Assembly (NCBI GenBank): GCA_963816145.1
Contig: CAWFJP010000015.1
Location: 32,001 to 96,000 of the forward strand
DNA length: 64,000 nt
Origin: an uncultured delta proteobacterium
Lineage (GTDB): Bacteria; Desulfobacterota; Binatia; UBA9968
Direction: 5' to 3'
Made by a program: the position numbers and the translations under genes. Positions 5,070 through 58,252 of this stretch are shown here, piece after piece; the stretch's first letter is position 1; each line of letters opens with the position of its first letter. The notes beneath the pieces were generated by a model. That model saw only the letters and a list, made by a program, of their open reading frames with translations. It was not told where the DNA came from and made no database searches.

Positions 5070-5130
5070 GAACCCCGGGTGACCTCTTCCATTTGGCTGG
5101 AGATCATCCCCCGAACGTAATTTTTTTAAG

Positions 5131-5201
5131 GTGACACGAAGTTCACGAAGGGCTCGGAATTCCCGATTTCCAAACTTCGTGTCCTTCGCGCCTTCGTGGT
5201 C
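5131..5201. repeat. CACGAAG 9-bp-periodic hairpin element, copy 1 (degenerate left arm)
   Basis: gacacgaagttcacgaagggctcgga...tccaaacttcgtgtccttcgcgccttcgtggt. Confidence 0.8.
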
Positions 5202-5279
5202 AGGACGAAGTGTTATATTCATGCAATAACTGCAAGAACCTCTATTGAACGGGCGCCGCCGATATGGTGAAAAGTAGCC

Positions 5280-7898: not shown

Positions 7899-7963
7899 GA
7901 TCCCTCACTTCGTTCGAGCTGACGGCTAATTTAGAATTGTCATTTCCAGCACAGCGAAAATTC
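7899..7963. repeat. Degenerate GTCAT-family repeat remnants
   Basis: gatccctcacttcgttcgagctgac ... tgtcatttccagcacagcgaaaattct resembles arms at 6145-6171 and 17903-17930. Confidence 0.4.
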
Positions 7964-8074
7964 TATTCGACCTACACTCGCAGGACTGGGCATGAACCCG
8001 AACCGTCAGTTGGCGCTGGTAGACGAAACGCTGCTAAAAGTGCTATCAAGAAAGCAATCAAAGGAGGTTTTTTT

Positions 8075-8638
8075 ATGGCATTACAGGAACAGAGAGCCGA
8101 CAACGCATTTGACCGCTATATCGCCGAAGTGCGCGCCGTCTGGGGTGATGGCAAGGACCCGCAGCTACCCTACAAAGTCGCCGGGCTGATGGAAAAACTT
8201 TTCGCCTCGACGAGTCCCGACGATCCCTGGATGGCCGAGATCATTCGCGACGGCAAACCATCCCGAGAGCTCTATCGCGACGCCGAGCATGGCTTCATTC
8301 AAATGGGCCATGTCCACAAACAAGGCCACGGCAACACGCCCCACGATCACGGCCCCTGCTGGGTCGTCTACGGCGCCTTTTCCGGCCTTACTGAAATCAC
8401 CAAGTACAAACGGACCGACGATGGCTCGCAACCGGGCAAATGCACGTTGGCAAAAGAGCGTCTCGATCGCCTCACTCCCGGCGCCGTGGTTCCCTACGTC
8501 AAGGGTGACATTCACTCGACCAACGCAGTTGAAGGTCCTGGCGTGGTTTTCCGCTTCTTGAGCTACGACTTGGATAAGATCGACCGCAGCCGTTACAACA
8601 TGGAAAAAGGCACGGTCATTCCGGTGCCGGCGCGGTGA
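8075..8638 (+). CDS. Cupin of the cysteine/thiol dioxygenase-like type
   Basis: PHDHGPCWVVYG ... GDIHS three-His pattern; AGGAGG RBS before ATG 8075. Confidence 0.72.
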   Translation: MALQEQRADNAFDRYIAEVRAVWGDGKDPQLPYKVAGLMEKLFASTSPDDPWMAEIIRDGKPSRELYRDAEHGFIQMGHVHKQGHGNTPHDHGPCWVVYGAFSGLTEITKYKRTDDGSQPGKCTLAKERLDRLTPGAVVPYVKGDIHSTNAVEGPGVVFRFLSYDLDKIDRSRYNMEKGTVIPVPAR

Positions 8639-8672: not shown

Positions 8673-8759
8673 TGTTCACCACGAAGGACACGAAGATCAC
8701 GAAGTTCGGAGTTTAGATGATCTGAAGCCTTCGTGTCCTTCGTGGCTTCGTGGTGAACA
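8673..8759. repeat. CACGAAG hairpin element, copy 2
   Basis: tgttcaccacgaaggacacgaagatcacgaagttcgga-gtttagatga-tctgaagccttcgtgtccttcgtggcttcgtggtgaaca. Confidence 0.9.
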
Positions 8760-8820: not shown

Positions 8821-9531
8821 ATGAGCGGCAACGACATCATCTTCGAACAGATTCGCTCTAGCGGCTGCCTATCCTACGTGTTGGGCTGCGCCCAGGAAAA
8901 GCTTTGTGTGGTCGTCGATCCCGAGATCGACAAAACCGATGACTACGCAGGTTTGGTCGATTTTTTCGGCGCAGAACTGCTCTATGTCGTCGACACGCAT
9001 ACCCATGCGGACCATAATTCCGCCTGCAAACTCATGCGCGAGCGCTACGGTGTCAAGGTGGTCATGCATCGCGCCACCGATGCGCCCTATGTCGATATCA
9101 GGGTTGAAGACGGTGAGGAAATTCGCTTCGGCAAGCAGACGCTCAAGGTGATCTACACGCCCGGCCATACGCAAGATTCCATGTGTCTGCTATTCAACGA
9201 CCGGGTTTTCACCGGCGACACCTTGCTCATCGGCGGCTGCGGCCGCACCGACCTGCCCGGCGGCAGCGCCGAGCAACAATGGGACAGCCTGCGCCGCTTG
9301 CAGGCGCTGGCGAACGAGCTCCGCGTCTATCCCGGCCACGACTACCGCGAAGCGGTATCGACCCTGGGTGATGAAAAACAAAAAAACCCACGATTGACCA
9401 TCGCCTCACGCGACGAATTCATCCAATTCATGACCTCGCGAAAACCGCCCCTACCGCGCAAAATCCAGGAAGCCTTGGAGTGGAATCGCACGCCGATCTA
9501 CCGGCAACGCGGTTTGGGCGAGGGGATTTGA
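8821..9531 (+). CDS. MBL-fold hydrolase, persulfide dioxygenase (ETHE1/Blh)-like
   Basis: DTHTHADHNS, TPGHT, FTGDTLLIGGCGRTD, VYPGHDY, EKQKNPRL, P.P.KI..AL..N. Confidence 0.85.
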   Translation: MSGNDIIFEQIRSSGCLSYVLGCAQEKLCVVVDPEIDKTDDYAGLVDFFGAELLYVVDTHTHADHNSACKLMRERYGVKVVMHRATDAPYVDIRVEDGEEIRFGKQTLKVIYTPGHTQDSMCLLFNDRVFTGDTLLIGGCGRTDLPGGSAEQQWDSLRRLQALANELRVYPGHDYREAVSTLGDEKQKNPRLTIASRDEFIQFMTSRKPPLPRKIQEALEWNRTPIYRQRGLGEGI

Positions 9532-16248: not shown

Positions 16249-16332
16249 ATTCACCACAAAGTCGCGAAGCGCACGAAGTTGGGAATATTATTTATCCAAA
16301 CCCTTCGTGTCCTTCGTGCCTTCGTGGTGAAT
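16249..16332. repeat. CACGAAG hairpin element, copy 3
   Basis: attcaccacaaagtcgcgaagcgcacgaagttggga...tccaaacccttcgtgtccttcgtgccttcgtggtgaat. Confidence 0.85.
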
Positions 16333-23139: not shown

Positions 23140-24144
23140 CTATCTTTTACCCCAGATTTGATCCCAAAAGCCACTCTTTTCCATGTCATTTAGAAACCGC
23201 GTATCGGTTAGTTCCTGCGGTTTGACCTTCTTGGCCCGCTCGTCGGTCTGCGCCACTTCATCGAGGATCGCTTGAAACGCCTCGGCTTTCAGCGCCAGCC
23301 GCGGCTCCATTACCTTGATCTCGGCGTTGTAGGCCGCTTCAATAATTGCCCGGTCGTTGATGCGCAACTGTTTGCCCAGAACTTTATAGACGAATTCGCG
23401 GTCGGTATGCATGACCTTCGATGCCTCGCCCATGGCGCGCATGTACTGCGCCATCACCTGAGGTCTCCGGGCAATGGTCGAACGCTTGGTGACAAATGAC
23501 GTGGCGGCATAGGGGATCTTAAGATCGGGCCCATAAATGACGTAGTGATAACCCCGGGTCAGGGCTTGCACGTCGGTCGGCGGGGTTAGGCAAGCCACCT
23601 CGACGCCGCCCGCTAGCAAAGCTGTGAGCGATTCCGGATCGCCGCCGGATTGCAGGAAAGTGTAATCGCGATTGGGCTCCATGTTATGACGGCGCAACGC
23701 TTGAATCGTAAAGTAATGCGAGTTGCTGCCGATGCGGCTCACTGCGATCCGTTTGCCCTTCAAGTCTTCGGGCCGTTTCAAATTGCCGCCGGCGATGATG
23801 TTCTGCGTCATCAAATTCTTGGCGCTGCCGACGTAAGCGATTTCCGTTGAGCCGCGCACGAAGGCGATGACGTTGCCGACGCCGCCGGTCATGGTCATGT
23901 CGGGGTCGCCGCCGAGCAGCGCGGCGGTGACGATGCTCGATGAGGCGATGAAAACCAGACTATGATCGAGATTGTATTTCTTGAAGAACCCGGCCTCCTC
24001 GGCGATCCAAGGCAAGGCCTGAGCCATCACCCTTGCCGAATAAATAGTGGTAAACTTCTCCGCCGCGCGGGAATTAGCCGGCGCCAGCATGGTCAAGCCA
24101 AACGCAACCAATAACAGCGGGCGTCGAATCATTTTTTGCTCCAA
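23140..24144 (-). CDS. ABC substrate-binding protein, NMT1/SsuA/THI5 family
   Basis: Signal peptide; WIAEEAGFFKKYNLD, DLKGKRIAVSRIGS; close paralog of 24129-25127. Confidence 0.9.
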   Translation of the reverse strand: MEQKMIRRPLLLVAFGLTMLAPANSRAAEKFTTIYSARVMAQALPWIAEEAGFFKKYNLDHSLVFIASSSIVTAALLGGDPDMTMTGGVGNVIAFVRGSTEIAYVGSAKNLMTQNIIAGGNLKRPEDLKGKRIAVSRIGSNSHYFTIQALRRHNMEPNRDYTFLQSGGDPESLTALLAGGVEVACLTPPTDVQALTRGYHYVIYGPDLKIPYAATSFVTKRSTIARRPQVMAQYMRAMGEASKVMHTDREFVYKVLGKQLRINDRAIIEAAYNAEIKVMEPRLALKAEAFQAILDEVAQTDERAKKVKPQELTDTRFLNDMEKSGFWDQIWGKR

Positions 24145-25127
24145 AGTTGATCCATAAAACCGCTCTTCTGCATCTCATCCAAGTACCGCGTGTCGACCAT
24201 TTCTTGCGGTTTGACATTCTTTGCCCGGGCATCGGTGGCCGTGAGTTCGTCCAAAATCGCCTGCAGAGAATCCAACTTCAAGGCGAGTCTTGGCTCCAAC
24301 GCTTTGATTTCCGCGTTGTAGGCAGAATCCAGGACGCTACGATCCGTTAAACGCAGATACTTACCCAAGACTTTGTAGAAAAACTCGCGATCGGTATGGA
24401 CGATTTTCGACGCCTCCGCCATGGCGCGCATGAAATTGGCGACCATGGCCGGCCGTTTGGCGATCACCGAACGCTTGGTGACAAACGCAGTCGCGGTGTA
24501 AGGTATTTTCAAATCGGGACCGTAGACCACGTAGTGATAACCCTTTGCGATGGCTTGGGCGTCGGTCGGCGGCGTCAAGTTGGCCACTTCGAGGGAGCCG
24601 CTCAACAGGGCGGCGAGCGCTTCAGGGTCGCCGCCGGTCTGCAGAAAACTGTAGTCGCGATTGGGTTCCATGTTATACCGGCGCAGCGCTTGTACGGTAA
24701 AATAATGTGAATTTCCGCCGATACGGCTGACGCCGATCCGTTTACCTTTGAGGTCCTCCGGTTTTTTGATGTTGCCGCCGGCAACCAACGTCTGGGTCAT
24801 GACATTTTTCACCCCGCCGATGAAAACCACATCGGTGGAACCTTTCACATATGCCGCGACATTGCCAATTCCGCCGGTGACCGTCATCTCGGTATCGCCG
24901 CCGAGCAGCGCTGCGGTGACGATGCTTGATGAGGAAATAAATACCAGATTGAAATCCAAATTATATTTCTTGAACAGCCCTGCTTCCTGAGCCACCCAAG
25001 GAAACGATTGCGACATCACCCGCGCCGAATGTACGCCGACAAGCTTGTCCGGCGCGGCGGCAGCGAAGCTTTGCTCTGTAGACAGCAAAATCAGCAAAAA
25101 CACTGCGAGTTTCTTAACGTTGTCCAT
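24129..25127 (-). CDS. ABC substrate-binding protein, NMT1/SsuA/THI5 family
   Basis: Signal peptide; WVAQEAGLFKKYNLD, DLKGKRIGVSRIGG; AAGGAG RBS inside the upstream gene end. Confidence 0.9.
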   Translation of the reverse strand: MDNVKKLAVFLLILLSTEQSFAAAAPDKLVGVHSARVMSQSFPWVAQEAGLFKKYNLDFNLVFISSSSIVTAALLGGDTEMTVTGGIGNVAAYVKGSTDVVFIGGVKNVMTQTLVAGGNIKKPEDLKGKRIGVSRIGGNSHYFTVQALRRYNMEPNRDYSFLQTGGDPEALAALLSGSLEVANLTPPTDAQAIAKGYHYVVYGPDLKIPYTATAFVTKRSVIAKRPAMVANFMRAMAEASKIVHTDREFFYKVLGKYLRLTDRSVLDSAYNAEIKALEPRLALKLDSLQAILDELTATDARAKNVKPQEMVDTRYLDEMQKSGFMDQLWSKK

Positions 25128-25894
25128 AAAGCTCCTTTATAAAACCGCTATCTTCTAACTCTTTAATGAACCGGTTGTCAAAGAACTCTTTGGGGTCCGC
25201 CGTTGCCGCTTTGGGATGGTCGGCTACGCTCAGAACCGCCCGAATATTTTCTATAGAGAAATTTTACATCCTGACCGGGGGCCAAATGATTGTGCCGCAG
25301 TACCGCAATCATGCCATGGTCCGCGGACGCGCCCTTGGTCATGACGCCGACTACTTTGCCCTTGAGACTCGAAATGTCTCTTACGTCGGCGCGGGCGTAG
25401 ACGGAAAAACCATAGGTCGGTACGATCAAAGCGATGTAGACCAGATCGGCACCGCTCAACACCGCGTTCACCACCGCCCCGCCGGTGGTTGCCATGTCGA
25501 TATCCCCAGCGACCAGCGTCTGGGTCAGCCGGGCATCGCCGGATATGTAAATGTTCTGGAGATCGAAACCGTATTTACGATCGAGCTTGGCCTCCGACAT
25601 CACCCAAAGCGGCAACTGCGCCCCGCTCGGCTGCGGATAGCCGACGCGAATCGTAATCGGCGCCGTAGCGGCAAAACACTCCTGTGGCGATGAAGGCATG
25701 ATAAGAGCCGATACCAAGATGACCAAAATAACTAAGGAAACCGAATCGGGATCGAATGAAAAAGAGTTTTCACCACGAAGGTCACGAAGAACACGAAGGA
25801 TTCGGATAATAATTTTTTCGAACTTCGTACCCTTCGTGTACTTCGTGGTAAGAAAGTTTCTTTCCACTCGGCAAAATCCCTTACCGCCGCCCAT
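25114..25894 (-). pseudogene. NMT1/SsuA binding-protein pseudogene with about 120-codon internal deletion and frameshift
   Basis: Matches paralog 25881-27023 up to GQDVKFLY (~25253), then in another frame ENIRAVLSVADHPKAATADPKEFFDNRFIKELEDSGFIKELYGQR* (stop 25114), the paralog C-terminus. Confidence 0.88.
25769..25852. repeat. CACGAAG hairpin element, copy 4 (in frame in gene 5' end)
   Basis: caccacgaaggtcacgaagaacacgaaggattcgga...ttcgaacttcgtacccttcgtgtacttcgtggtaag. Confidence 0.88.
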
Positions 25895-27023
25895 AGAGCT
25901 CATTGATAAAGCCACTATCTTCGACCTCCTTCAACAAACGGTTGTCGAAAAAATCTTTCGGATCAGCGCCCGCCGCCTTCGGGTGATCCGCGACGGCGAG
26001 GATCGATCGCACTTGTTCCTCAGTGGTGTAAGGGACCTTCGGATAGATGCCGCGATAGGCCTGGTAGGCTTCTTCCAGGATGGCGCCGTCGCTGGTCGCG
26101 AGATACTTGGCCAATGCCCGCTTGCTGATATCGCCATCTTCATTGACGACTTTGATCGCCGCAACGTAGCCGCGCAGGAACGCCTTCATGCGATCGGGTT
26201 GTTGGCGTAAAAAAGCTCGATGGGCGACGATGCCCAATTGAATGTAGGGAATTTTCAACTGCATAAAATTGACCAATTCTCTGTAGCCCATGCGCCGCGC
26301 CATCAACGTGGTCGGCGCGGAAATTGTCGTCGCCGACACGATGCCGCGGTCCAAGGCGGCCAAACCCTCCCGCACCCCGCCGAGGTACAACACTTTGACA
26401 TCCTGCCCCGAGCGCAGATTGTATTGACGCAAGAGTGCCGTCAGGCCATGGTCCGTCGACGCGCCTTTGGTCATCAACCCGACGACTTTGCCTCTGAGGG
26501 AAGGCACATCCTTGACATCGTTGCGCACGTAGAGAGAGAACCCATACGTCGGCACGCTCGCCGCAACATAGGTGAGATCGGCGCCGCTCAACACCGCGTT
26601 GATCACCGCCCCGCCGGTGGCCGCCAATTCGATGTCGCCGGAGACCAGCGTCTGCGTCAATCGCGCGCCGCCGGAGATGTAAATATTCTGCAGATCGACA
26701 CCGTATTTCCGGTCAAGTTTGCTTTCCGCCATGACCCAGATCGGCAACATCGCCCCGGAAGGCTGGGGATAGCCGATGCGAATATTGTTAGCCGACGCGG
26801 CGAAACTCTCCCGCGCCGATATATGCATGAGCAGCAGCGCCAAACTTACGAGCGTGCCCAGCACGACGCGCTTGCGAGGAAATGCAAAGCAGTATTCACC
26901 ACGAAGGACACGAAGAGCACGAAGTTCGGAATTATAATTATCCGAAACCTTCGTGTTCTTCGTGCTCTTCGTGGTGAGATCCAATGTCCCTACCACTCGA
27001 TAAAGCCGATTACCGCCGTCCAT
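25881..27023 (-). CDS. ABC substrate-binding protein, NMT1/SsuA family
   Basis: IRIGYPQPSGAMLPIWV, SLRGKVVGLMTKGASTD. Start placed at ATG 27023 (AGGAG-ctct-ATG overlapping the upstream gene end); start uncertain. Confidence 0.85.
   Translation of the reverse strand: MDGGNRLYRVVGTLDLTTKSTKNTKVSDNYNSELRALRVLRGEYCFAFPRKRVVLGTLVSLALLLMHISARESFAASANNIRIGYPQPSGAMLPIWVMAESKLDRKYGVDLQNIYISGGARLTQTLVSGDIELAATGGAVINAVLSGADLTYVAASVPTYGFSLYVRNDVKDVPSLRGKVVGLMTKGASTDHGLTALLRQYNLRSGQDVKVLYLGGVREGLAALDRGIVSATTISAPTTLMARRMGYRELVNFMQLKIPYIQLGIVAHRAFLRQQPDRMKAFLRGYVAAIKVVNEDGDISKRALAKYLATSDGAILEEAYQAYRGIYPKVPYTTEEQVRSILAVADHPKAAGADPKDFFDNRLLKEVEDSGFINELYGRR
26895..26978. repeat. CACGAAG hairpin element, copy 5 (in frame in gene 5' end)
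   Basis: ttcaccacgaaggacacgaagagcacgaagttcgga-attataatta-tccgaaaccttcgtgttcttcgtgctcttcgtggtgag. Confidence 0.92.
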
Positions 27024-28003
27024 AGAGCTCCTGGACAAAGCCGCTGTCTTCGATTTCTTTGAGAAACCTTGTCTCGAAAAAGTCTTTTGCATTGGCCCCA
27101 GCCGCTTTGGGATGTTCAGAGAGGACCAGGCTCGACTTGATCTGATCTTCGGTGACGTAGGGCACCCGTGGAAAGATACCCCGGAAAGTTTGATAGGCCT
27201 CATCCAGGATGGCGCTATCGGTGGTTACGAGATAGCGGCTGAGGGCGCGTTTACTGGTGCCGGCGTCTTCGTTGGCGATTTTGATGGCGGCGATGTAGGC
27301 GCGCAGATAGGCCTTGATCCGTTCCGGCTGCTGGCGCGCAAACGCCCGCCGCGTGGCGACGCCGCTGTGCATGTACGGCAACCCAAGGGTGGCGATATTC
27401 ACCAGTTCTTTTTGCCCCAGGCGGCGCGCTGCCAGCGTCGTCGGCGAGGACAACACCCCTGCCGCGGCGATGCCGTGCTCGATGGCCGCCAGCACTTCAC
27501 GCACACCGCCGAGATAGATGAACTTCACGTCTTTGCCCGGCTGCAGATTGTGTCGCTGCATGCAGAGCAATCACCGCATGCTCCGACGACGCGCCCTTGC
27601 TCATGATGCCGACGATTTTGCCTTGCAGGCTGGCGATGTCCTTCACTTCGGGCCGGGCGTAGAAGGAAAAACCGTAGGTCGGCACGCCAACCGCGATCGC
27701 CACCAAATCGCCGCCGCCCAGGACAGTATTGACGACGGCACCGCCGATGCTGGCGAGATCGATATCGCCGGCAACCATCGCTTGATTCATGCGCGCGGCG
27801 CCCGAGATGAAAATGTTCTGCACCGGCACGCCGTACTTTTGGTCGAGCTTGGCTTCGGTGACCAGCCAAAGCGGCAGCATCGCGCCGGACGGTTGTGGAT
27901 AACCGACGCGAATTGTCGCGGACGCAGCCAATAGTGCCGCCTCCGATCCAACCACGAGCATCAACACAAGCACGATGAATGTGACGCAAAGTTTTCGCTT
28001 CAT
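27010..28003 (-). pseudogene. NMT1/SsuA binding protein split by a 1-bp insertion near 27562 (pseudogene or sequence error)
   Basis: MKRKL...SEHAVIAL + extra C + MQRHNLQPGKDVKF. Removing one base restores collinearity with paralog DHGLTALLRQYNL. Confidence 0.85.
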
Positions 28004-39774: not shown

Positions 39775-40908
39775 CTAATCCAGCAGCTTGCGCGCCAGCT
39801 CCGCGCCCGGCTCTCTAATTTTGTAGATCTTGTCTTCGGATTGATTCTCGCGTTTAAAAAACTCCTCCGGCGTCATGGTATCCTTCGCCGCACTGATACC
39901 GGTCTTTCTAAGCCAGGTGGTATCGACATCGAGCCGGCGCGTCGGTTCGCCCATACCGGTTGTATAAACCTCTTGGCCCTCTTTACCGAGAAACCAGTTG
40001 ACGAAGAGTTTGGTTGCGTTCGGGTGCGGCCCGTTCTTAATAACCGTCAGGCCACCGTAACCTGTGGTCACGTACATGCCTTCTTTCGGCTTGGGAAGGG
40101 GTTTGACGGGGAGGCCGGCCTTGATGAACGGCAAGAAGTCCGCGTAGGCAATACCGAGGGCGATGGAGAGACGCTCTTTTGCAGTGTTTTCGGCCAGCAG
40201 CCGCAGATCGCGGGAGATGAACATCTTCTGCCCGACGAGCGTCTTGAGAAATCCCTCTCCCTTAATCGACCGCATATACGACCACATGGACGCTCCGGAA
40301 CCGGGTGTGCGCGGGTCACTTAGACCGATCTTGCCCTGCCATTTCGGATTCAAGAGATCGTCAAAAGAGCGAAACTCCTCTGGCTTTACTAGATTCGTAT
40401 TATGCCAGAGGCTCTCGGTTTGATAGGCCGCGAAGCTGTAGATAAAGCGCTTGGCGTTGTCCATCCAGATATGGCCGCCCCACCAGTTTTTAGTCGCGGT
40501 AACTTCTGGAATTACAAACCAAGGTTCGACTGGTTCGAGGATTCCTTCGGCCATAAGCCCTTTAACGGCCGATTCAGTCCCACCGATGTGGAGATCGAAG
40601 TTTGCAATTCCGGCCTTGAATTCTTCAGCGATGCGAGTGATCAAAGTTGCGCCCCGCGCCGGAACTAACTCAAGGGTTATGCCGAAGCGTTTTCCAAAAG
40701 TTTCTTCAACGCCTTTGCGAAACTCCGCGCTCGGTGGAATCGACACGACGAGCTTGCCTTCCGCCTTCGCAGCTTCAGCGAGTTTCTGCCACTCGTTTCC
40801 AGCCGGCGCTCTGGCGCTTTGCCCGTAGGCCAACCATGGTAGTCCGGCAATGAGCGCCGACAGCATAAGCGCTAAACAAATCAAATTTGAATGCCGCATA
40901 AGGCTCAA
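39775..40908 (-). CDS. Extracellular solute-binding protein (AfuA/FbpA-like), paralog 4
   Basis: Signal peptide; AAKAEGKLVV, WWGGHIWMD, DPRTPGSG, PHPNA, ENQSEDK. Confidence 0.9.
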   Translation of the reverse strand: MSLMRHSNLICLALMLSALIAGLPWLAYGQSARAPAGNEWQKLAEAAKAEGKLVVSIPPSAEFRKGVEETFGKRFGITLELVPARGATLITRIAEEFKAGIANFDLHIGGTESAVKGLMAEGILEPVEPWFVIPEVTATKNWWGGHIWMDNAKRFIYSFAAYQTESLWHNTNLVKPEEFRSFDDLLNPKWQGKIGLSDPRTPGSGASMWSYMRSIKGEGFLKTLVGQKMFISRDLRLLAENTAKERLSIALGIAYADFLPFIKAGLPVKPLPKPKEGMYVTTGYGGLTVIKNGPHPNATKLFVNWFLGKEGQEVYTTGMGEPTRRLDVDTTWLRKTGISAAKDTMTPEEFFKRENQSEDKIYKIREPGAELARKLLD

Positions 40909-40962
40909 TCTTTCACCGGCTGAGCGTAGCTAAAACCGAATCGCAATCATTCTTGCGAATGT

Positions 40963-42075
40963 CTAATTGCCGAGTAGCTTGCGCGCCACCGCCGCGGCCG
41001 GCTCACGGATATTTTTAATCTTTTCCTCCGATTGATTTTCGTACTTGCCAAACTGTTCCGGCGGGAGAAAATCTTTAGCGGCAATGACGCCATAGTCGCG
41101 CAGCCATTTGGTTTCGATCTCCAAGCGACGGCTGCCCACACCCATGCCGCGCCCGAACACTTCTTGACCGTCACGGCTGAGCAACCAGTTGACGAACACC
41201 TTGGTGGCATTGGGATGTGGCTGATTTTTGAGAACGGTCAGATGACCGTAACCGCCGCTGATATAGAGCCCTTCCTTGGGCACCGGCAAGGGCAGAACCG
41301 GAAGATCGACTTTGATAAAGGGTTGAAACTCCGAGTAGCCGATGCCGGAGGTCACGGCGATCTTGCCCCGCGCCAAATTCTCCGCCAGCAGCCGCAGATC
41401 CCGCGTGATAAACAGTTTCTGCGCCACCAGCTTGCGCAAAAACTCTTCGCCCTTGATGTGGTGCATATACGACCACATCGATGAACCGGAGCCGGGCGTG
41501 CGCGGGTCGCTGATGCCGATCTTGCCGACGAGCTTGGGATCAAGCAGATCGTCGAAGGATTTAAACTCGCTGGGCTTGTACTGATTGCCATTGCTCCACA
41601 AACTGACCGTTTGGTAGGCGACGAAGTTGTAGACGTAACGCTTGGCGTTATCTATGTAAATATGGCCGCCCCACCAGTATTTAGGGTCGCGCACTTCCGG
41701 TAAAATCAAATAAGGATCGATTGGATCGAGAATATTTTCCGGCAAGAAGGCCGTGATCACCGACTCGGTGCCGCCGATATGCAGATCGAAATATTGCACG
41801 CCGGCCTTGGCCTCGCTGACGATGCGCTGCACCACCGCGCCGCCGCGCGCCGGCACGAACTCGGTAGCAATGCCGTAGCGGCGCGTGAACGCGATCTCCA
41901 TGAGCTTGCGCAATTCCGGTGTCGGCGGAATCGAAGCGACCACCTTGCCTTCCTTCTTGGCCGCTTCAAGAATCTTATCCCAGTCAGCCTGACGAAACTG
42001 TGAGGTCTGTGCTGCAAGAGGCGCAGCACTCAACAGCGCCAAGGTCAACGATGCCAACGAAATCAACTTCTTCAT
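40963..42075 (-). CDS. Extracellular solute-binding protein (AfuA/FbpA-like), paralog 3
   Basis: AAKKEGKVV, WWGGHIYID, DPRTPGSG, PHPNA, ENQSEEK. Confidence 0.9.
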   Translation of the reverse strand: MKKLISLASLTLALLSAAPLAAQTSQFRQADWDKILEAAKKEGKVVASIPPTPELRKLMEIAFTRRYGIATEFVPARGGAVVQRIVSEAKAGVQYFDLHIGGTESVITAFLPENILDPIDPYLILPEVRDPKYWWGGHIYIDNAKRYVYNFVAYQTVSLWSNGNQYKPSEFKSFDDLLDPKLVGKIGISDPRTPGSGSSMWSYMHHIKGEEFLRKLVAQKLFITRDLRLLAENLARGKIAVTSGIGYSEFQPFIKVDLPVLPLPVPKEGLYISGGYGHLTVLKNQPHPNATKVFVNWLLSRDGQEVFGRGMGVGSRRLEIETKWLRDYGVIAAKDFLPPEQFGKYENQSEEKIKNIREPAAAVARKLLGN

Positions 42076-42105
42076 ATCCGCACTCGATAAATTCGCGCGG
42101 CCAAT

Positions 42106-43224
42106 CTATGCGCCGCGAAATAATTTCTCCGCCGACTGCATGGCCGGCTTGCGATACTTGATAACCACCTCTTCGGAGCCGTTCTCGAGCTCGTCGTATT
42201 TCTCCGGTGTAAGAATTTCCTTCGCCGCCGTGTGGCCGAATTCGCGCGTCCATTTGGTGTCGACATCTAAACGGCGGGTCGGCTGGCCCAGGGCTTTGGT
42301 CAGCGCCGTTTGGCCGTCCTTGGACAACAGCCAGTTTAAAAATACCTTGGCGGCGTTGGGATGAGGCGGGTTCTTGATCAAAACAACGTTGCCGCTGCCG
42401 GACGCTGCGTAGTATCCCTCCTTGATGTTCGAAATCGGTTTGACCGGCAACCCCGCTTTGATGAACGGCAAGTAGGTGTAATAGGAAAGACCGATGGAAA
42501 TCGCCGATTTGCCGCGGGCGACGTTTTCACCCAATTGGCGCAGGTTGCGCCCGACCAACATCTCCTGGGCGGCTAGCTTAGCGAGATAAGCTTCGCCTTT
42601 GATGCGCCAGAGAAACGCCCAGCTCGATTCGCCGGAACCCGGCGAACGCGGGTCTAGAATAGCAATCTTACCTTTCCATTTGGGATCGAGCAGGCTATCC
42701 CACGAGCTGATTTCTTCGGGCTTGACCAGCGTCGTATTGTACCAAATCGTTTCGGTCATATAGGCGGTAAAGCCGTAGATAAATTTCTTAGCGATATCGG
42801 CCCAGAGATGGCCGCCCCACCAGTACTTGGGGTCGCGCACTTCCGGCAAAATCATCGCCGGCATCACCGGTTCGAGAAGATTTTGCGCCAACAGTCCGGT
42901 AATGATTGAAGTGGTGCCGCCAACATGCAGGTCGATGCTGCGCACGCCGGCGTTTTGCTCGTCGACGATCTTGTTAATATTGCTGGCGCCGCGCGCCACA
43001 CTGAGTTCCAGCTCGATTCCTGGAAATGCTTTTTGGAAACCGCTTTCGAATTCCTTGCGCAGCTCCGCGCTGGTGGGAATCGAAACAACGACGCGACCTT
43101 CCTTCTTGGCGGCTTCGACGACCTTGTCCCATTCGGGGCTGCTAGTTTGCGAGAAAACAGCTGAGGCTAGAAACAACGTCAAGATGGAGACATGGGCCAA
43201 TGACATGACCGATTTTCGAACCAT
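42106..43224 (-). CDS. Extracellular solute-binding protein (AfuA/FbpA-like), paralog 2
   Basis: AAKKEGRVV, WWGGHLWAD, DPRSPGSG, PHPNA, ENGSEE. Confidence 0.9.
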   Translation of the reverse strand: MVRKSVMSLAHVSILTLFLASAVFSQTSSPEWDKVVEAAKKEGRVVVSIPTSAELRKEFESGFQKAFPGIELELSVARGASNINKIVDEQNAGVRSIDLHVGGTTSIITGLLAQNLLEPVMPAMILPEVRDPKYWWGGHLWADIAKKFIYGFTAYMTETIWYNTTLVKPEEISSWDSLLDPKWKGKIAILDPRSPGSGESSWAFLWRIKGEAYLAKLAAQEMLVGRNLRQLGENVARGKSAISIGLSYYTYLPFIKAGLPVKPISNIKEGYYAASGSGNVVLIKNPPHPNAAKVFLNWLLSKDGQTALTKALGQPTRRLDVDTKWTREFGHTAAKEILTPEKYDELENGSEEVVIKYRKPAMQSAEKLFRGA

Positions 43225-43238
43225 GGAACGACCCTCCC

Positions 43239-44456
43239 CTAACCCAACAGTTTGCGCGCCAACGCCGCGGCGGGCTCACGCCAGCGATTGATCTTTTCCT
43301 CGGATTGATTTTGGCGTTTGTAATATTGCTCGATGGTCAGATGATCTTTTGCCGGCAGTACGCCGAACTCGCGCAGCCACTTGGTGTCGACGTCCAGGCG
43401 CCGCGTCGGTTGATGCATCGCTTTGGTGTAAACATCCTGGCCTTCACGGCTCATAAACCAGTTGAGAAACAGCCGCGCGGCGTTGGGATGCGGGGCGTTT
43501 TTCAAGACGACGACATGGCCGCTGCCGCCGGCGACGTACATCCCTTCCTTGGGCGCCGGCAGCGGCGCGACCGGCAAACCCGCTTTGATGAAAGGCGCGT
43601 AGTTGTAGTAACTAAGTCCGAGCACGAAAGCGATATTGCCTTTGGCCAGAATCTCCGCCAGAACGCGTTGATCGCGGCTCAAGGCGAGCTTTTGCCCCAC
43701 CAGCTTGCGCAGGTATTCCTCGCCTTTGATCTCGCGAAGATAGGACCATAACGATGCGCCCGAACCCGGAGTGCGCGGATCGAGAAAGCCGATCTTGCCT
43801 TTGAATTTCTCGTCGAGCAGATCGTCGAAGCTGCGCACATCTTCGGCTTTCATCATTTGGGAATTGAACCACAAGCTCTCCGGCTGATAGGCCAGGGTGC
43901 CGTAAACAAATTTTTTCGCGTTGTCGACCCAGATATGACCGCCCCACCACTGCTTCGGATCCTTGACTTCGGGCAGCACCATGTAGGGTTCCAGCGGATC
44001 GACAATACCTTCGGGCAGCATGCCCGTAACCACCGATTCACTGCCGCCCATATGCAGGTCGGTGTAGCGCACGCCCGCCTTGGCCTCATCCACCATCTTG
44101 CGCACCACGGTCGCCGCCCGGCCGACTATCGGCTCGACATCGATGCCGTAACGGTTCTCGAAAAGTCGTTCGATGGCGGCGCGTAACTCGTTGCTCGCCG
44201 GTAACGACACCACCACCTTGCCTTCTTTCTTGGCCGCTTCGACGACCTTGTCCCAGTCGGTTTGCCAAGCTGGTTTAGCCGTCTGCGCACTGACGCCGAC
44301 GGGGATCGCTGTCATGCAGCAAAATATCAGGCCGCTAATTAGTTTCATTGGAGGATTACGCATATCCAAGAGGGCGGGTTTGTAACCCGCCCCTACACGT
44401 CGTCTTTCTTTTTTGCGTCGTTTGCGTTCTTTGCGGCCATTTCTTCGGTCTCTCAA
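43239..44456 (-). CDS. Extracellular solute-binding protein (AfuA/FbpA-like), paralog 1; start 44456 (TTG), 44363 or 44348
   Basis: AAKKEGKVV, WWGGHIWVD, DPRTPGSG, QNQSEEK. Confidence 0.88.
   Translation of the reverse strand: MRDRRNGRKERKRRKKERRRVGAGYKPALLDMRNPPMKLISGLIFCCMTAIPVGVSAQTAKPAWQTDWDKVVEAAKKEGKVVVSLPASNELRAAIERLFENRYGIDVEPIVGRAATVVRKMVDEAKAGVRYTDLHMGGSESVVTGMLPEGIVDPLEPYMVLPEVKDPKQWWGGHIWVDNAKKFVYGTLAYQPESLWFNSQMMKAEDVRSFDDLLDEKFKGKIGFLDPRTPGSGASLWSYLREIKGEEYLRKLVGQKLALSRDQRVLAEILAKGNIAFVLGLSYYNYAPFIKAGLPVAPLPAPKEGMYVAGGSGHVVVLKNAPHPNAARLFLNWFMSREGQDVYTKAMHQPTRRLDVDTKWLREFGVLPAKDHLTIEQYYKRQNQSEEKINRWREPAAALARKLLG
44371..44441 (-). repeat. GTAG-type REP plus GGCCGCAA 9-bp-periodic repeat
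   Basis: Minus strand tggccgcaaagaacgcaaacgacgcaaaa ... gtaggggcgggttacaaacccgccct. Confidence 0.75.
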
Positions 44457-47458: not shown

Positions 47459-47600
47459 CCCGTGTTTTTTCAAGGACTAGGAAGCCACCGAAGGCTAAAC
47501 CAGAATATTCCGTCGAATACCTTAAGGGAGCGTTGCTGCGGCCCAGTTGGACTGTCGAATACCAGCCATTGCCGGGGTATCGCATTGCTGGGAAAGACAC

Positions 47601-47646
47601 AACCGCATTAGGCTATCGAGAGATTCGATAGCCTAATGCGGTTTTT
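47601..47646. terminator. Perfect 19-bp stem-loop, terminator-like
   Basis: aaccgcattaggctatcga-gagat-tcgatagcctaatgcggtt, 40 bp downstream of the TPP gene stop; T-run is on the + side. Confidence 0.7.
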
Positions 47647-47684
47647 GCTAAAAAAACGAAGGGACTACGAAACCTATGGGCGGG

Positions 47685-49544
47685 TTATTTCTTTCCCAAA
47701 CTCGCCCGTTGATCGGGCCCGCTATCGGCGTAACCCGGCTGCACCAGGGAATCGATAAAGTACCGTCCGCCCTTGGCAACGATGGCCGCGCCTTTCTTGA
47801 GCGCTTTCATTAAAGCGTCTGAAGTCGACACCGGCGCTTCACTGTCGAAGCCCTGCGCTCGCGCCATGGCGACCAGATCGACGCGCGGGTTATCGATCTG
47901 CTGGCCGATCCAACGATTTTGCGCCGGACGGCTGCGCATCTTTGCGACCCGTTCCTGATGCAACTCGTCGTTGAAATAAGACCGATTGTCCGCCACCACG
48001 ATCATCACCGGAATATTGAAATGGGACGCCGTCCACAAGGCATTCACACCCATGAGGTAATCACCATCGCCGAGGACGCCGATGGTCAATCGCCCGGAAT
48101 CTTTTAGCGCCAGCGCCGCGCCGATGGTATGTCCAGGTCCGGTGCCGACTGCGCCGCCGCCGTCGTTGCCCATAAACGACAGCGGCCCATCGAATTCATA
48201 GGCTTCGCCCGGCCAACCGATCGGCAGACGCGAGAAAGTCACGTCGCGCCGTTTGGCGAACTCGCGGACGGTCATCGCCATATCCCACATAGTCATCTCG
48301 CCCTTCGTCGAGAACTTCGCGAATTTAGTATCGTTCCAATGACTCAGCGACTTCATCTCGGCGCGCTGCTTCACCTTCGGCGCTCTCACGCCGCCCAGTT
48401 CATTGAGCAATTGCCCGACGAATTGATCCGGCTCGGCAAGAATGGGAACATCCACCGCAGGAAGCGCCTGATGATCCATGCTCCAACCATTGGTCCGGTA
48501 GTTATCGACGGAGCAGTGAATAATCGTTTTCGCTGCCGGCTCTTGCGTCTGCGCCTTGCCCAAGCTCAAACGCAGCACACCGGCGAGATCGAGCCAATCT
48601 AAACTGATGATCAAATCGGCCTTTTGGATCAAAGCTGTCGCTGCCTTGTTCGGGCGCACGCAAGGCGCGGCAAAATGAAGCGGGTGCGTCGTCGGAAACG
48701 CCGACGGATCGTTGCTGCTGGTCAACACCGCGGCGCCGATCGCTTCAGCGAAGCGCACGCGCCGATCCCAATCGGCTTGATCGCGCGACACGCGCCCGGC
48801 CAAGATCAACGGGAACTTCGCTTGCTCGATGGCCTTCAGCGCCTGCCGAATCGACGCAGGCGAAACCGCCGGCGTCGGGGCCGGCGCGAAGCGCGAGGCG
48901 TCAGGAATGATGATTTCGTCGCTAAGCCCCGACTCCTGCAAACCGGCATCGAGACAGATATAAACCGGTCCGCGCGGCGCCGTGCGGGTGATTTGATTGG
49001 CCCGCAGCACCGACTCGACCGCCGCCTGAGCCGAGGCCGGTTGATCGTCCCATTTGGTGTAATCGCGAATCAGCGCGCCTTGATCCTTGGATGTATGAAT
49101 CCAGTCGATCCACGGCCGGCGCAGATGCGCATCCACCGGACCGGTCGCGCCGAAAATAATCATCGGCGTGCGGTCGCACCAGGCGTTGAAGATCGGCATG
49201 GTCGCATGCAGCAGACCGACGTTGGCATGCAGTGCCACCGCCATCGGCGTCTCGGTCACTTTGCCGTAGCCGTCGGCGATCGACACCGCGTGTTCTTCAT
49301 GAAGGCAAATCACCATCTGCGGATTTTCATTGCCGAGATAGTTGACGATGCTGTCGTGAAAACCGCGGTAGCTCGCCCCCGGCACCAAGGCGATGTATTT
49401 AAGGTTGAGCCGACGCGTCGTTTCGGCGACCACGTCGCTGCCCCACTTCATTTGCGGCGTGCCTAGGCTTTCCGGCCGGTCGATGCTGCCGCGGCTTGAC
49501 TGACGCTTGTTCGCCTTGAGCGCCTTTTTTGTGGTTTTCATCAT
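47685..49544 (-). CDS. Thiamine pyrophosphate-dependent enzyme
   Basis: PGASYRGFHDS, CLHEEHAVSIADGY, GPVYICLD, GDGDYLMG...DNRSY. Confidence 0.92.
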   Translation of the reverse strand: MMKTTKKALKANKRQSSRGSIDRPESLGTPQMKWGSDVVAETTRRLNLKYIALVPGASYRGFHDSIVNYLGNENPQMVICLHEEHAVSIADGYGKVTETPMAVALHANVGLLHATMPIFNAWCDRTPMIIFGATGPVDAHLRRPWIDWIHTSKDQGALIRDYTKWDDQPASAQAAVESVLRANQITRTAPRGPVYICLDAGLQESGLSDEIIIPDASRFAPAPTPAVSPASIRQALKAIEQAKFPLILAGRVSRDQADWDRRVRFAEAIGAAVLTSSNDPSAFPTTHPLHFAAPCVRPNKAATALIQKADLIISLDWLDLAGVLRLSLGKAQTQEPAAKTIIHCSVDNYRTNGWSMDHQALPAVDVPILAEPDQFVGQLLNELGGVRAPKVKQRAEMKSLSHWNDTKFAKFSTKGEMTMWDMAMTVREFAKRRDVTFSRLPIGWPGEAYEFDGPLSFMGNDGGGAVGTGPGHTIGAALALKDSGRLTIGVLGDGDYLMGVNALWTASHFNIPVMIVVADNRSYFNDELHQERVAKMRSRPAQNRWIGQQIDNPRVDLVAMARAQGFDSEAPVSTSDALMKALKKGAAIVAKGGRYFIDSLVQPGYADSGPDQRASLGKK

Positions 49545-58101: not shown

Positions 58102-58178
58102 GGCGGTGTAGCTCAGATGGTCAGAGCACGCGGCTCATATCCGCGGCGTCGACAGTTCGACTCTGTCCACCGCCACCA
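58102..58178 (+). tRNA. tRNA-Met (CAT), probably elongator
   Basis: Cloverleaf: GGCGGTG/CACCGCC acceptor, cgcgg-CTCATAT-ccgcg anticodon arm, TTCGA T-loop, encoded CCA. Confidence 0.95.
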
Positions 58179-58184
58179 AGTTTC

Positions 58185-58252
58185 CCCCCGAGAATCCCAG
58201 CATTTACAGAGTTCATTACAACTTGAGGGATTCTCGGGGGATGGCTTTTTTT
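58185..58252 (+). terminator. Long-loop hairpin plus T-run after the tRNA
   Basis: cccccgagaatccc-N28-gggattctcggggg then atggcttttttt. Confidence 0.55.

Follow-up and report, generated by a model that had tools for sequence, protein, structure and literature searches.

A CACGAAG-heptad hairpin repeat in frame with the predicted leaders of two adjacent binding-protein genes in a Binatia contig

Rickettsia palindromic elements (RPEs) are described, in passages of the literature on them, as palindromic repeats that lie in frame in genes and are read as an extra peptide while the host protein is spared, and passages of two papers report N-terminal cases of RPE-1 as expressed (PMC3733652; PMC10969869). 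Here, we describe a hairpin element with arms of CACGAAG heptads from a 64,000-nucleotide (nt) stretch of an uncultured Binatia bacterium (contig CAWFJP010000015.1, positions 32,001 to 96,000; this whole stretch is termed the window herein), in which two of five copies lie in frame in the N-termini of adjacent substrate-binding protein genes (genes A and B). An earlier, sequence-only reading of the window had named RPEs as a precedent for translated repeats. Such an RPE-like reading is reasonable, and in-frame carriage is kept in relatives; as in RPEs, a stop-free, in-frame palindromic repeat was found within a real gene, namely, gene B and 15 of its homologues. Compared by description, the two kinds of element also differ. 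RPEs are ∼100 to 150 bp long, are restricted to Rickettsia, and occupy many internal sites of unrelated proteins, whereas the window element is 84 nt long, has heptad arms with a 9-nt period, occurs in many phyla, is mostly intergenic, and was seen in frame at the signal-peptide n-region of, essentially, a single gene lineage.

Three other described systems are close to the element. REP/BIME/REPIN sequences are, according to passages of one survey (PMC3733652), short multicopy palindromic hairpins that are found mainly at tandem or convergent gene pairs near 3′ ends and are occasionally intragenic. The heptad element is likewise multicopy (5 copies in 64 kb), mostly intergenic, occasionally intragenic, and biased toward tandem and convergent pairs, and the 3′-side bias of its family matches what those passages say of REPs (PMC3733652); by analogy, a role of the hairpin at the RNA level, in mRNA stability or termination, is possible. 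It differs from REPs in that neither a GTAG nor a CGTC tag was found next to the five window copies, which have the conserved ends ACC...GGT instead, in that its arms are tandem heptads and not one imperfect palindrome, and in that the window contains no RAYT. MITEs (ERIC, BOX, Correia-type, and others) are non-autonomous inverted repeats that can be co-transcribed, form hairpins, and sometimes give in-frame fusions, as stated in passages of PMC10969869. The heptad element shares these traits, inverted arms included, but is almost all inverted repeat plus a short loop. No parent insertion sequence (IS) was found for it, and inspection by eye of the five window copies and of the listed flanks revealed no target-site duplication, the insertion boundaries being undefined. 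PARCELs, in passages of PMC2996958, resemble the element in being dyad-symmetric coding sequences that give a similar peptide from either strand, are associated with membrane-targeted proteins, and occur patchily in distant taxa; compared by description, they differ in being tandem 25-residue protein domains in dedicated open reading frames (ORFs) and not single hairpins of an intergenic type.

Two copies in frame between a coupled start and a signal-peptide core

Five tandem genes for NMT1/NitT-TauT-type substrate-binding proteins (genes C, B, A, D, and E) run on the minus strand from position 28003 to 23140. The products of A/B/C-type genes have the C-terminal sequence ...ELYG(R/Q)R, and the codons of this tail contain the ribosome-binding site (RBS) and the ATG of the next gene; the start candidates that overlap the upstream tail are ATG 27023 in gene B and, in gene A, either GTG 25915 or ATG 25894. 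From its coupled ATG, gene B comprises 15 codons, the 28 codons of copy 5 (codons 16 to 43), 9 further codons, the predicted hydrophobic core, and a cleavage region rich in Ala. Gene A is arranged likewise, copy 4 being its insert (codons 22 to 49 from GTG 25915 or 15 to 42 from ATG 25894). On the minus strand, copies 4 and 5 read as LTTKYTKGTKFEKIIIRILRVLRDLRGE and LTTKSTKNTKVSDNYNSELRALRVLRGE, respectively, 28 codons each. The sequence-only reading had placed both copies between the coupled start and the signal-peptide core of adjacent genes, in frame and in opposite polarity. Coordinates and translations agree with this placement, and the 84-nt length and the peptides agree with the claim that the frame is kept. 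The opposite polarity could be verified as well, although it is subtle: it consists of a 2-nt asymmetry beside the inner stem and of two classes of loop peptide, and over the whole loop copies 4 and 5 are identical at 18/24 positions in one orientation versus 19/24 in the other. The earlier description was correct in every checkable detail.

Since ATG 25127 at the element-free junction between genes A and D runs straight into a signal peptide, the coupled ATG is the real start there; it opens MDNVKKLAVFLL... and has AAGGAG 5 nt upstream. Comparison with element-free relatives, suggested by the sequence-only reading, gave the same answer for homologues P0020 and P0022, which begin with MAG... 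at the coupled ATG and lead directly into the hydrophobic core. The Shine-Dalgarno (SD) duplex energies at the coupled starts are −6.6 kcal/mol for gene B (AGGAG), −13.3 kcal/mol for gene A (AGGAGG, at GTG 25915), and −8.0 kcal/mol for gene D. It had further been claimed that no good RBS or start lies past the element, and this holds: the in-frame starts beyond copies 4 and 5 all lie inside the hydrophobic core, have no RBS (+0.3 to −2.9 kcal/mol), and would leave no charged n-region. These starts bear on an alternative explanation, which is that the element is an untranslated intercistronic hairpin, that the proteins start downstream of it at a weak GTG, TTG, or ATG, and that the open frame reflects chance plus extension by the gene caller. 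We regard this explanation as unlikely, although it is the main rival (see below for the evidence from other genomes), since it would place the starts inside the hydrophobic core, with no n-region and no SD, and since translation can be shown to begin at the coupled ATG where relatives lack the element.

The claim that the element gives the same peptide in either orientation is true but trivial for a palindrome whose length is a multiple of 3. Because of dyad symmetry and a length divisible by 3, the symmetric frame yields Thr-Lys-x from the left arm and Leu-Arg-x from the right arm whichever strand is read, and the loop alone differs, giving a VSDNY-like or an FGIIII-like peptide depending on orientation. 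The identity of the peptides is arithmetic, not biology. Among the three coding-strand frames of the element, one contains stops, one is open but hydrophobic, and one, the frame in use, is open and hydrophilic. The unused open frame (Arg-Arg-x ... Phe-Val-x) reaches a maximum 11-residue mean hydropathy of 2.79; the corresponding maximum in the used frame is −0.06, with a net charge of +3 and +5 in the two copies. The chance of an insert being both in frame and stop-free is ∼1/3 × 0.68 (roughly 0.2).

We consider it probable, from the arrangement of the sequences, that copies 4 and 5 are REP/MITE-like hairpin repeats that were inserted into the leader, are translated in a benign frame, and are removed with the signal peptide. 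They would belong to a non-autonomous REP/MITE-like family in which 2 to 4 CACGAAG heptads, repeating every 9 nt, make up each arm, the foot is ACC...GGT, and the loop is specific to the lineage; this family would normally occupy the spot just 3′ of a gene stop. In the array, this post-stop niche would already be coding, because the downstream start lies in the last codons of the upstream gene, and it would coincide with the n-region of the next gene's signal peptide. Ribosomes from the coupled start would pass through the 84-nt palindrome in the frame that is hydrophilic and has no stops (Thr-Lys-x ... Leu-Arg-x, net +3 to +5). The added peptide would lengthen the basic n-region and then leave with the cleaved signal peptide, so that the mature protein would be unchanged. 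Only in-frame, stop-free versions that add no second hydrophobic stretch would survive selection, and the 9-nt period would let units come and go with the frame unbroken. N-terminal repeats in annotated genes are usually dismissed as miscalled starts; here, the start is fixed by the overlap with the upstream gene. The locus would be a rare natural case of an intergenic-type hairpin repeat that is very probably read by ribosomes and that escapes its cost via signal-peptide cleavage, and it may serve as a model for the tolerance of selfish palindromic DNA in coding sequence outside Rickettsia.

TABLE 1 Heptad hairpin copies, host genes, and start and leader features in the window (hairpin energies and z values are for predicted RNA folds)
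Feature	Position	Strand	Description
Copy 1	5130..5202		Degenerate; between divergent genes; hairpin z −1.2
Copy 2	8675..8757		Intergenic, flanked by plus-strand genes 7937-8638 and 8821-9531; −51.1 kcal/mol
Copy 3	16249..16332		Intercistronic, between the stop of an amidohydrolase gene (16344) and the start of the next minus-strand gene (16132); −40.8 kcal/mol
Copy 4	25769..25852	−	84 nt; loop polarity opposite to that of copy 5; in N-terminus of gene A; −42.5 kcal/mol, z −6.6
Copy 5	26895..26978	−	84 nt; 3+3 CACGAAG/CTTCGTG units, 24-nt AT-rich loop with inner stem; in gene B; −52.1 kcal/mol, z −8.8
Gene C	27010..28003	−	Paralogue upstream of gene B; own start (MKRK...), no element
Gene B	25881..27023	−	Intact NMT1/NitT-TauT-type substrate-binding protein, 380 amino acids from coupled ATG
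Gene A	25117..25915	−	Paralogue of gene B; equivalent of B residues 214-335 deleted, plus frame change; N-terminus carries copy 4
Gene D	24129..25127	−	Element-free control; coupled ATG within tail of gene A, then signal peptide directly
RBS and coupled ATG of gene B	27021..27032	−	AGGAG 27028-27032, ATG 27021-27023; inside last codons of gene C (stop 27010-27012)
Predicted signal-peptide hydrophobic core of gene B	26826..26867	−	Residues 53-66; sole hydrophobic stretch in first 95 residues; Ala-rich cleavage region after it

Inserts at the same junction in homologues of gene B

The N-termini of the 120 best homologues of gene B, which are predicted proteins, mostly metagenomic, with the few named ones from Candidatus Binatia, were classed by the number of residues before a conserved [YF]PQPSG anchor. 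An ordinary signal peptide was found in 80/120, of which 32 begin like the coupled start (MAG... or MDG...). In 31 of the 120, the frame is open from the coupled start and the anchor is preceded by at least 52 residues; 7 others are truncated before the anchor, and 2 start after it. Of the 31 extended forms, 15 contain a recognizable CACGAAG-type insert, with 2 to 4 repeat units per arm and in all cases in the Thr-Lys/Leu-Arg frame. Seven carriers show one polarity (P0001, P0002, P0003, P0004, P0050, P0055, and P0067) and eight the other (P0005, P0007, P0012, P0052, P0054, P0056, P0059, and P0069). The distance from the coupled Met to the element, judged by eye, is 16 codons in 14/15 carriers; it is 15 codons in gene A of the window, a difference of 3 nt.

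Units vary among these carriers, with 4 Thr-Lys units in P0004, 2 in P0005, and 2 Leu-Arg units in P0012, and the frame is kept throughout, which bears out the proposal that the 9-bp period is compatible with coding. In P0052 and P0067, a second, unrelated repeat is nested within the first and is still in frame. The same slot also holds different repeat-derived inserts (P0006/11, P0009/13/14/15, P0017/18/63, P0010, and P0092), some of which look like related heptads with a different middle, others like unrelated palindromic repeats. All of these varied inserts leave the frame from the coupled start open, so that the junction resembles a hot spot for repeats. Long inserts stay open too, with 134 residues before the anchor in P0011 and 150 in P0067, and one homologue (P0075) may represent an empty site, in which the pre-element flank is kept as a plain n-region. 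That so many in-frame states occur in one slot (both polarities, 2 to 4 units, nested and unrelated inserts) favors, at the sequence level, insertion into a leader that is translated.

The 31 extended forms compare with at most ∼11 out-of-frame candidates among the predicted proteins (7 truncated, 2 starting after the anchor, P0008, and P0109), far from the ∼0.2 expected by chance, which favors selection for an open frame and hence translation. Both this ratio and the length of the nested inserts that remain open (P0011 and P0067) argue against an untranslated hairpin.

Homologue P0003 and gene B share 293/303 mature residues, versus 3/15, 18/28, and 16/34 in successive N-terminal segments, with equal total length; a conserved mature protein behind a diverged leader favors a leader that is discarded. 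The first 77 residues of the pair match at 37, which suggests exchange or conversion of the N-terminal module and not gradual drift. The protein P0124 (79 amino acids) has the start flank and left arm of gene B but another loop, right arm, and downstream sequence, and it looks like the product of recombination between two element copies.

The state of the host genes raises the alternative that these are dying paralogues, in which insertions are tolerated because the genes no longer matter and the continuity of the frame is a relic. Gene A has a deletion and a frameshift and is, by its sequence, a pseudogene in the window; gene C occupies two reading frames, with an overlap near 27533-27564, reflecting either a frameshift or an assembly error; and frameshifted orthologue fragments exist elsewhere (P0122 and P0226). 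Two of the three A/B/C-type paralogues are hence broken or misassembled, while genes D and E are intact but distant paralogues (∼28% identity to gene B). This explanation is nonetheless very unlikely in our view, as gene B is intact, its mature part is 84 to 97% identical to those of full-length orthologues with an in-frame element, and such elements also occur in A-type orthologues that are intact (383 to 390 amino acids). The identity of the mature part among element carriers points to purifying selection on the mature protein.

A further explanation is that the peptide or the hairpin has been co-opted, to tune export or initiation or to protect the upstream mRNA for unequal expression of the paralogues. 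The repeated filling of the slot by different repeats would fit such a role, as would the very stable hairpin of copy 5, which lies 33 nt past the stop of the upstream gene, and the 3′-side bias of the family (tandem gene pairs at 30 of 67 loci, convergent pairs at 20, and divergent pairs at 6; see below). We nevertheless think it highly improbable, because many close orthologues have no insert (80/120 homologues of gene B are of standard form), the inserts vary in sequence, length, and polarity, and conservation tracks the DNA heptad and not the peptide. In addition, 0/120 of the best homologues of gene D, which is equally coupled, had an extended N-terminus or heptad peptide. The same result limits the suggestion of the sequence-only reading that basic, cleaved n-regions act as a safe haven for the element: this is plausible but was seen in one gene lineage, and, judged from these homologues, the slot is not general to coupled binding-protein genes.

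The heptad family in the window and in other genomes

Allowing up to 2 mismatches, the pattern CACGAAG-NN-CACGAAG matched 17 times in the window, versus 0.66 expected, and the five hairpin copies account for 15 of the 17 matches. Each copy is built of 2 to 3 heptads with a 9-nt period, an AT-rich loop of 24 nt that contains an inner stem, the matching heptads on the opposite arm, and an ACC...GGT foot. A search of the window for further heptad flavors (CACRRAG) found none besides the five known copies. With Rfam 15 at the gathering score, the whole window gave one tRNA match and no family for the element, and at a relaxed threshold the element gave only subthreshold look-alikes of microRNA hairpins. 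The possibility that the hairpin is an intrinsic terminator was not supported, there being no T-run within 2 nt of the stem at copies 2, 4, and 5; a terminator scan was blank at these copies, but its loop limit of 3 to 8 would exclude them anyway.

A two-arm pattern with 28 specified bases was scanned against representative genomes and returned at least 121 stretches, with flanks and titles for 80 of them. Grouped by record titles, these 80 loci place the hairpin in at least 12 phylum-level groups (Acidobacteriota, "Deltaproteobacteria"/Desulfobacterota, Binatia, Methylomirabilales, Nitrospinota, Schekmanbacteria, Verrucomicrobiota, Planctomycetota, Chloroflexota, Gemmatimonadota, Bacteroidota, and Gamma- and Alphaproteobacteria), at a G+C content of 38 to 74%. 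Among the 121 copies listed, several features that the pattern did not demand are conserved: the AC...GT foot is present in 91, the spacing is 9 nt in 341/397 heptad steps, and 45 have 3+3 heptads. The two spacer bases between heptads form 120 Watson-Crick pairs, 39 G-T pairs, and 121 mismatches among 280 pairs; pairing is above chance and often mismatched, suggesting that the heptad itself is kept, beyond mere pairing. Loops and outer flanks are lineage specific, and the loop type of the window recurs in metagenome-assembled genomes of Binatia and "delta" bacteria (L007, L012-15, L023, L028, L030, L042, L078, L084, and L088).

At the 67 loci with at least 900 nt of flank, the flanking genes were tandem in 30, convergent in 20, and divergent in 6, a long ORF spanned the element in 9, and 2 had no gene call. 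Most copies are intergenic and lie 3′ of genes, a REP-like distribution. In one Binatia contig, a cox-type operon contains three intercistronic copies, and the genes downstream start at ATGs of their own past the element. Of the nine element-spanning ORFs, four (L063, L064, L034, and L017) have no Pfam family; for L063, which had been a candidate for an embedded insert, this means that it is not an insertion in a recognized protein. The second such candidate, L025, is a spurious frame, as the element directly adjoins the infB stop and is separated by 20 nt from the start of rbfA. The ORF at L041 has a glycosyltransferase domain ∼115 residues in, which neither shows nor excludes reading of the element; three others complete the set.

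Element peptides were also sought at the protein level, as the sequence-only reading had recommended. A profile of 30 Thr-Lys/Leu-Arg translations, that frame being the only one searched, was run against 1.84 billion representative proteins and gave 555 proteins at an E value of ≤0.001. The best 150 of these comprise 131 of <120 amino acids, 10 of 120 to 199, and 9 of at least 200 amino acids. None of the last nine could be accepted as a host protein, all being ORFs over element arrays or without any family. The search thus returned mainly spurious small ORFs, and annotators should be aware that ORFs over heptad repeats are mostly of this kind. A separate search with a 40-residue element peptide gave 4 proteins among 14 candidates, which is not a census. 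One profile hit, P0171 (133 amino acids), is a fragment of another protein; close to its N-terminus it contains an element in frame and then a stretch that resembles a signal peptide. It has no Pfam match and may represent a second gene lineage with the same arrangement.

Several of these results weigh against translation of the element in genes A and B and lend weight to the untranslated hairpin. Across 76 loci, 24 inspected cases were open into a downstream ORF, and in 0/24 did the element need to be translated; real starts lie 10 to 100 nt downstream of the mostly intergenic or intercistronic copies, and ORFs of other phyla that run open through an element likewise have their real start beyond it. 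Heptad elements are typically stop-free in 4 to 5 of 6 frames, and 131 of the 150 best profile hits are the short, mostly spurious ORFs described above. According to passages of Di Nocera et al. (2013), REPs at N-termini are in many cases not codogenic (PMC3733652). Among the homologues themselves, the start called for P0109 is an ATG within the right arm, read in the Phe-Val frame, and that called for P0008 lies just past the element, implying that reading the whole element is not obligatory. The comparison of 31 extended with ∼11 out-of-frame forms comes from gene-caller predictions, which extend any open ORF, its out-of-frame count is a bound only, and the homologues are not independent events. 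The start of gene C also has no SD, so that in this organism the lack of an SD says little; it is also unusual for a coding region to contain a hairpin of −52 kcal/mol; and, with gene A a pseudogene and gene C frameshifted, the array may be decaying. Against these points stand the coupled start in element-free relatives, the lack of a usable start past the element, the retention of the frame in the carriers, the many in-frame states of one slot, the constant spacing from the coupled Met, the diverged leader before a conserved mature protein, the use of the benign frame, and the possible empty site in P0075, and we still consider translation in the leader and removal with the signal peptide the probable course.

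Searches of the literature by sequence string and by heptad terms found no description of a CACGAAG heptad family. We put forward tentatively, and with considerable doubt, that the CACGAAG hairpin is an undescribed pan-bacterial family, with the same 7-mer, 9-nt period, and foot and a variable loop, and, as a separate matter, that the n-regions of coupled secreted-protein genes are a recurrent landing pad for repeats that are translated and discarded. If true, a pan-bacterial heptad family would imply a conserved trans-acting partner or an agent that mobilizes it across phyla.

Mobility and other repeats in the window

A link of the element to RAYT or another transposase was not established: a Y1 (RAYT) or other transposase was found in 0/48 ORFs of the window, and an IS200-like Y1 domain was found in 1/129 flanking ORFs elsewhere. 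The latter ORF (L016:789-1400, minus strand) starts ∼100 nt from the hairpin at 1501-1558, and its other side has no hairpin; it is a lead for a mobilizing enzyme, no more. The two copies at L009, separated by 1.4 kb, have between them an ordinary transporter-like ORF and not a transposase. Nucleotide searches (blastn) against plasmid and phage collections gave no match, although the low-complexity filter may hide matches.

The window contains further repeats and a second gene array. A perfect hairpin with 19-nt arms and a 5-nt loop (47601-47643) is nested in a second inverted repeat at 47589-47698, in the spacer of two minus-strand genes, and is unrelated to the heptad family. Directly beyond the tRNA gene (58102-58175), a 14-nt perfect inverted repeat with a 28-nt spacer is located at 58185-58240. 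The second tandem array, at 39778-44456, comprises four solute-binding protein genes of the SBP_bac_1 type, which have ordinary spacers of 33 to 58 nt, their own starts, and no element.

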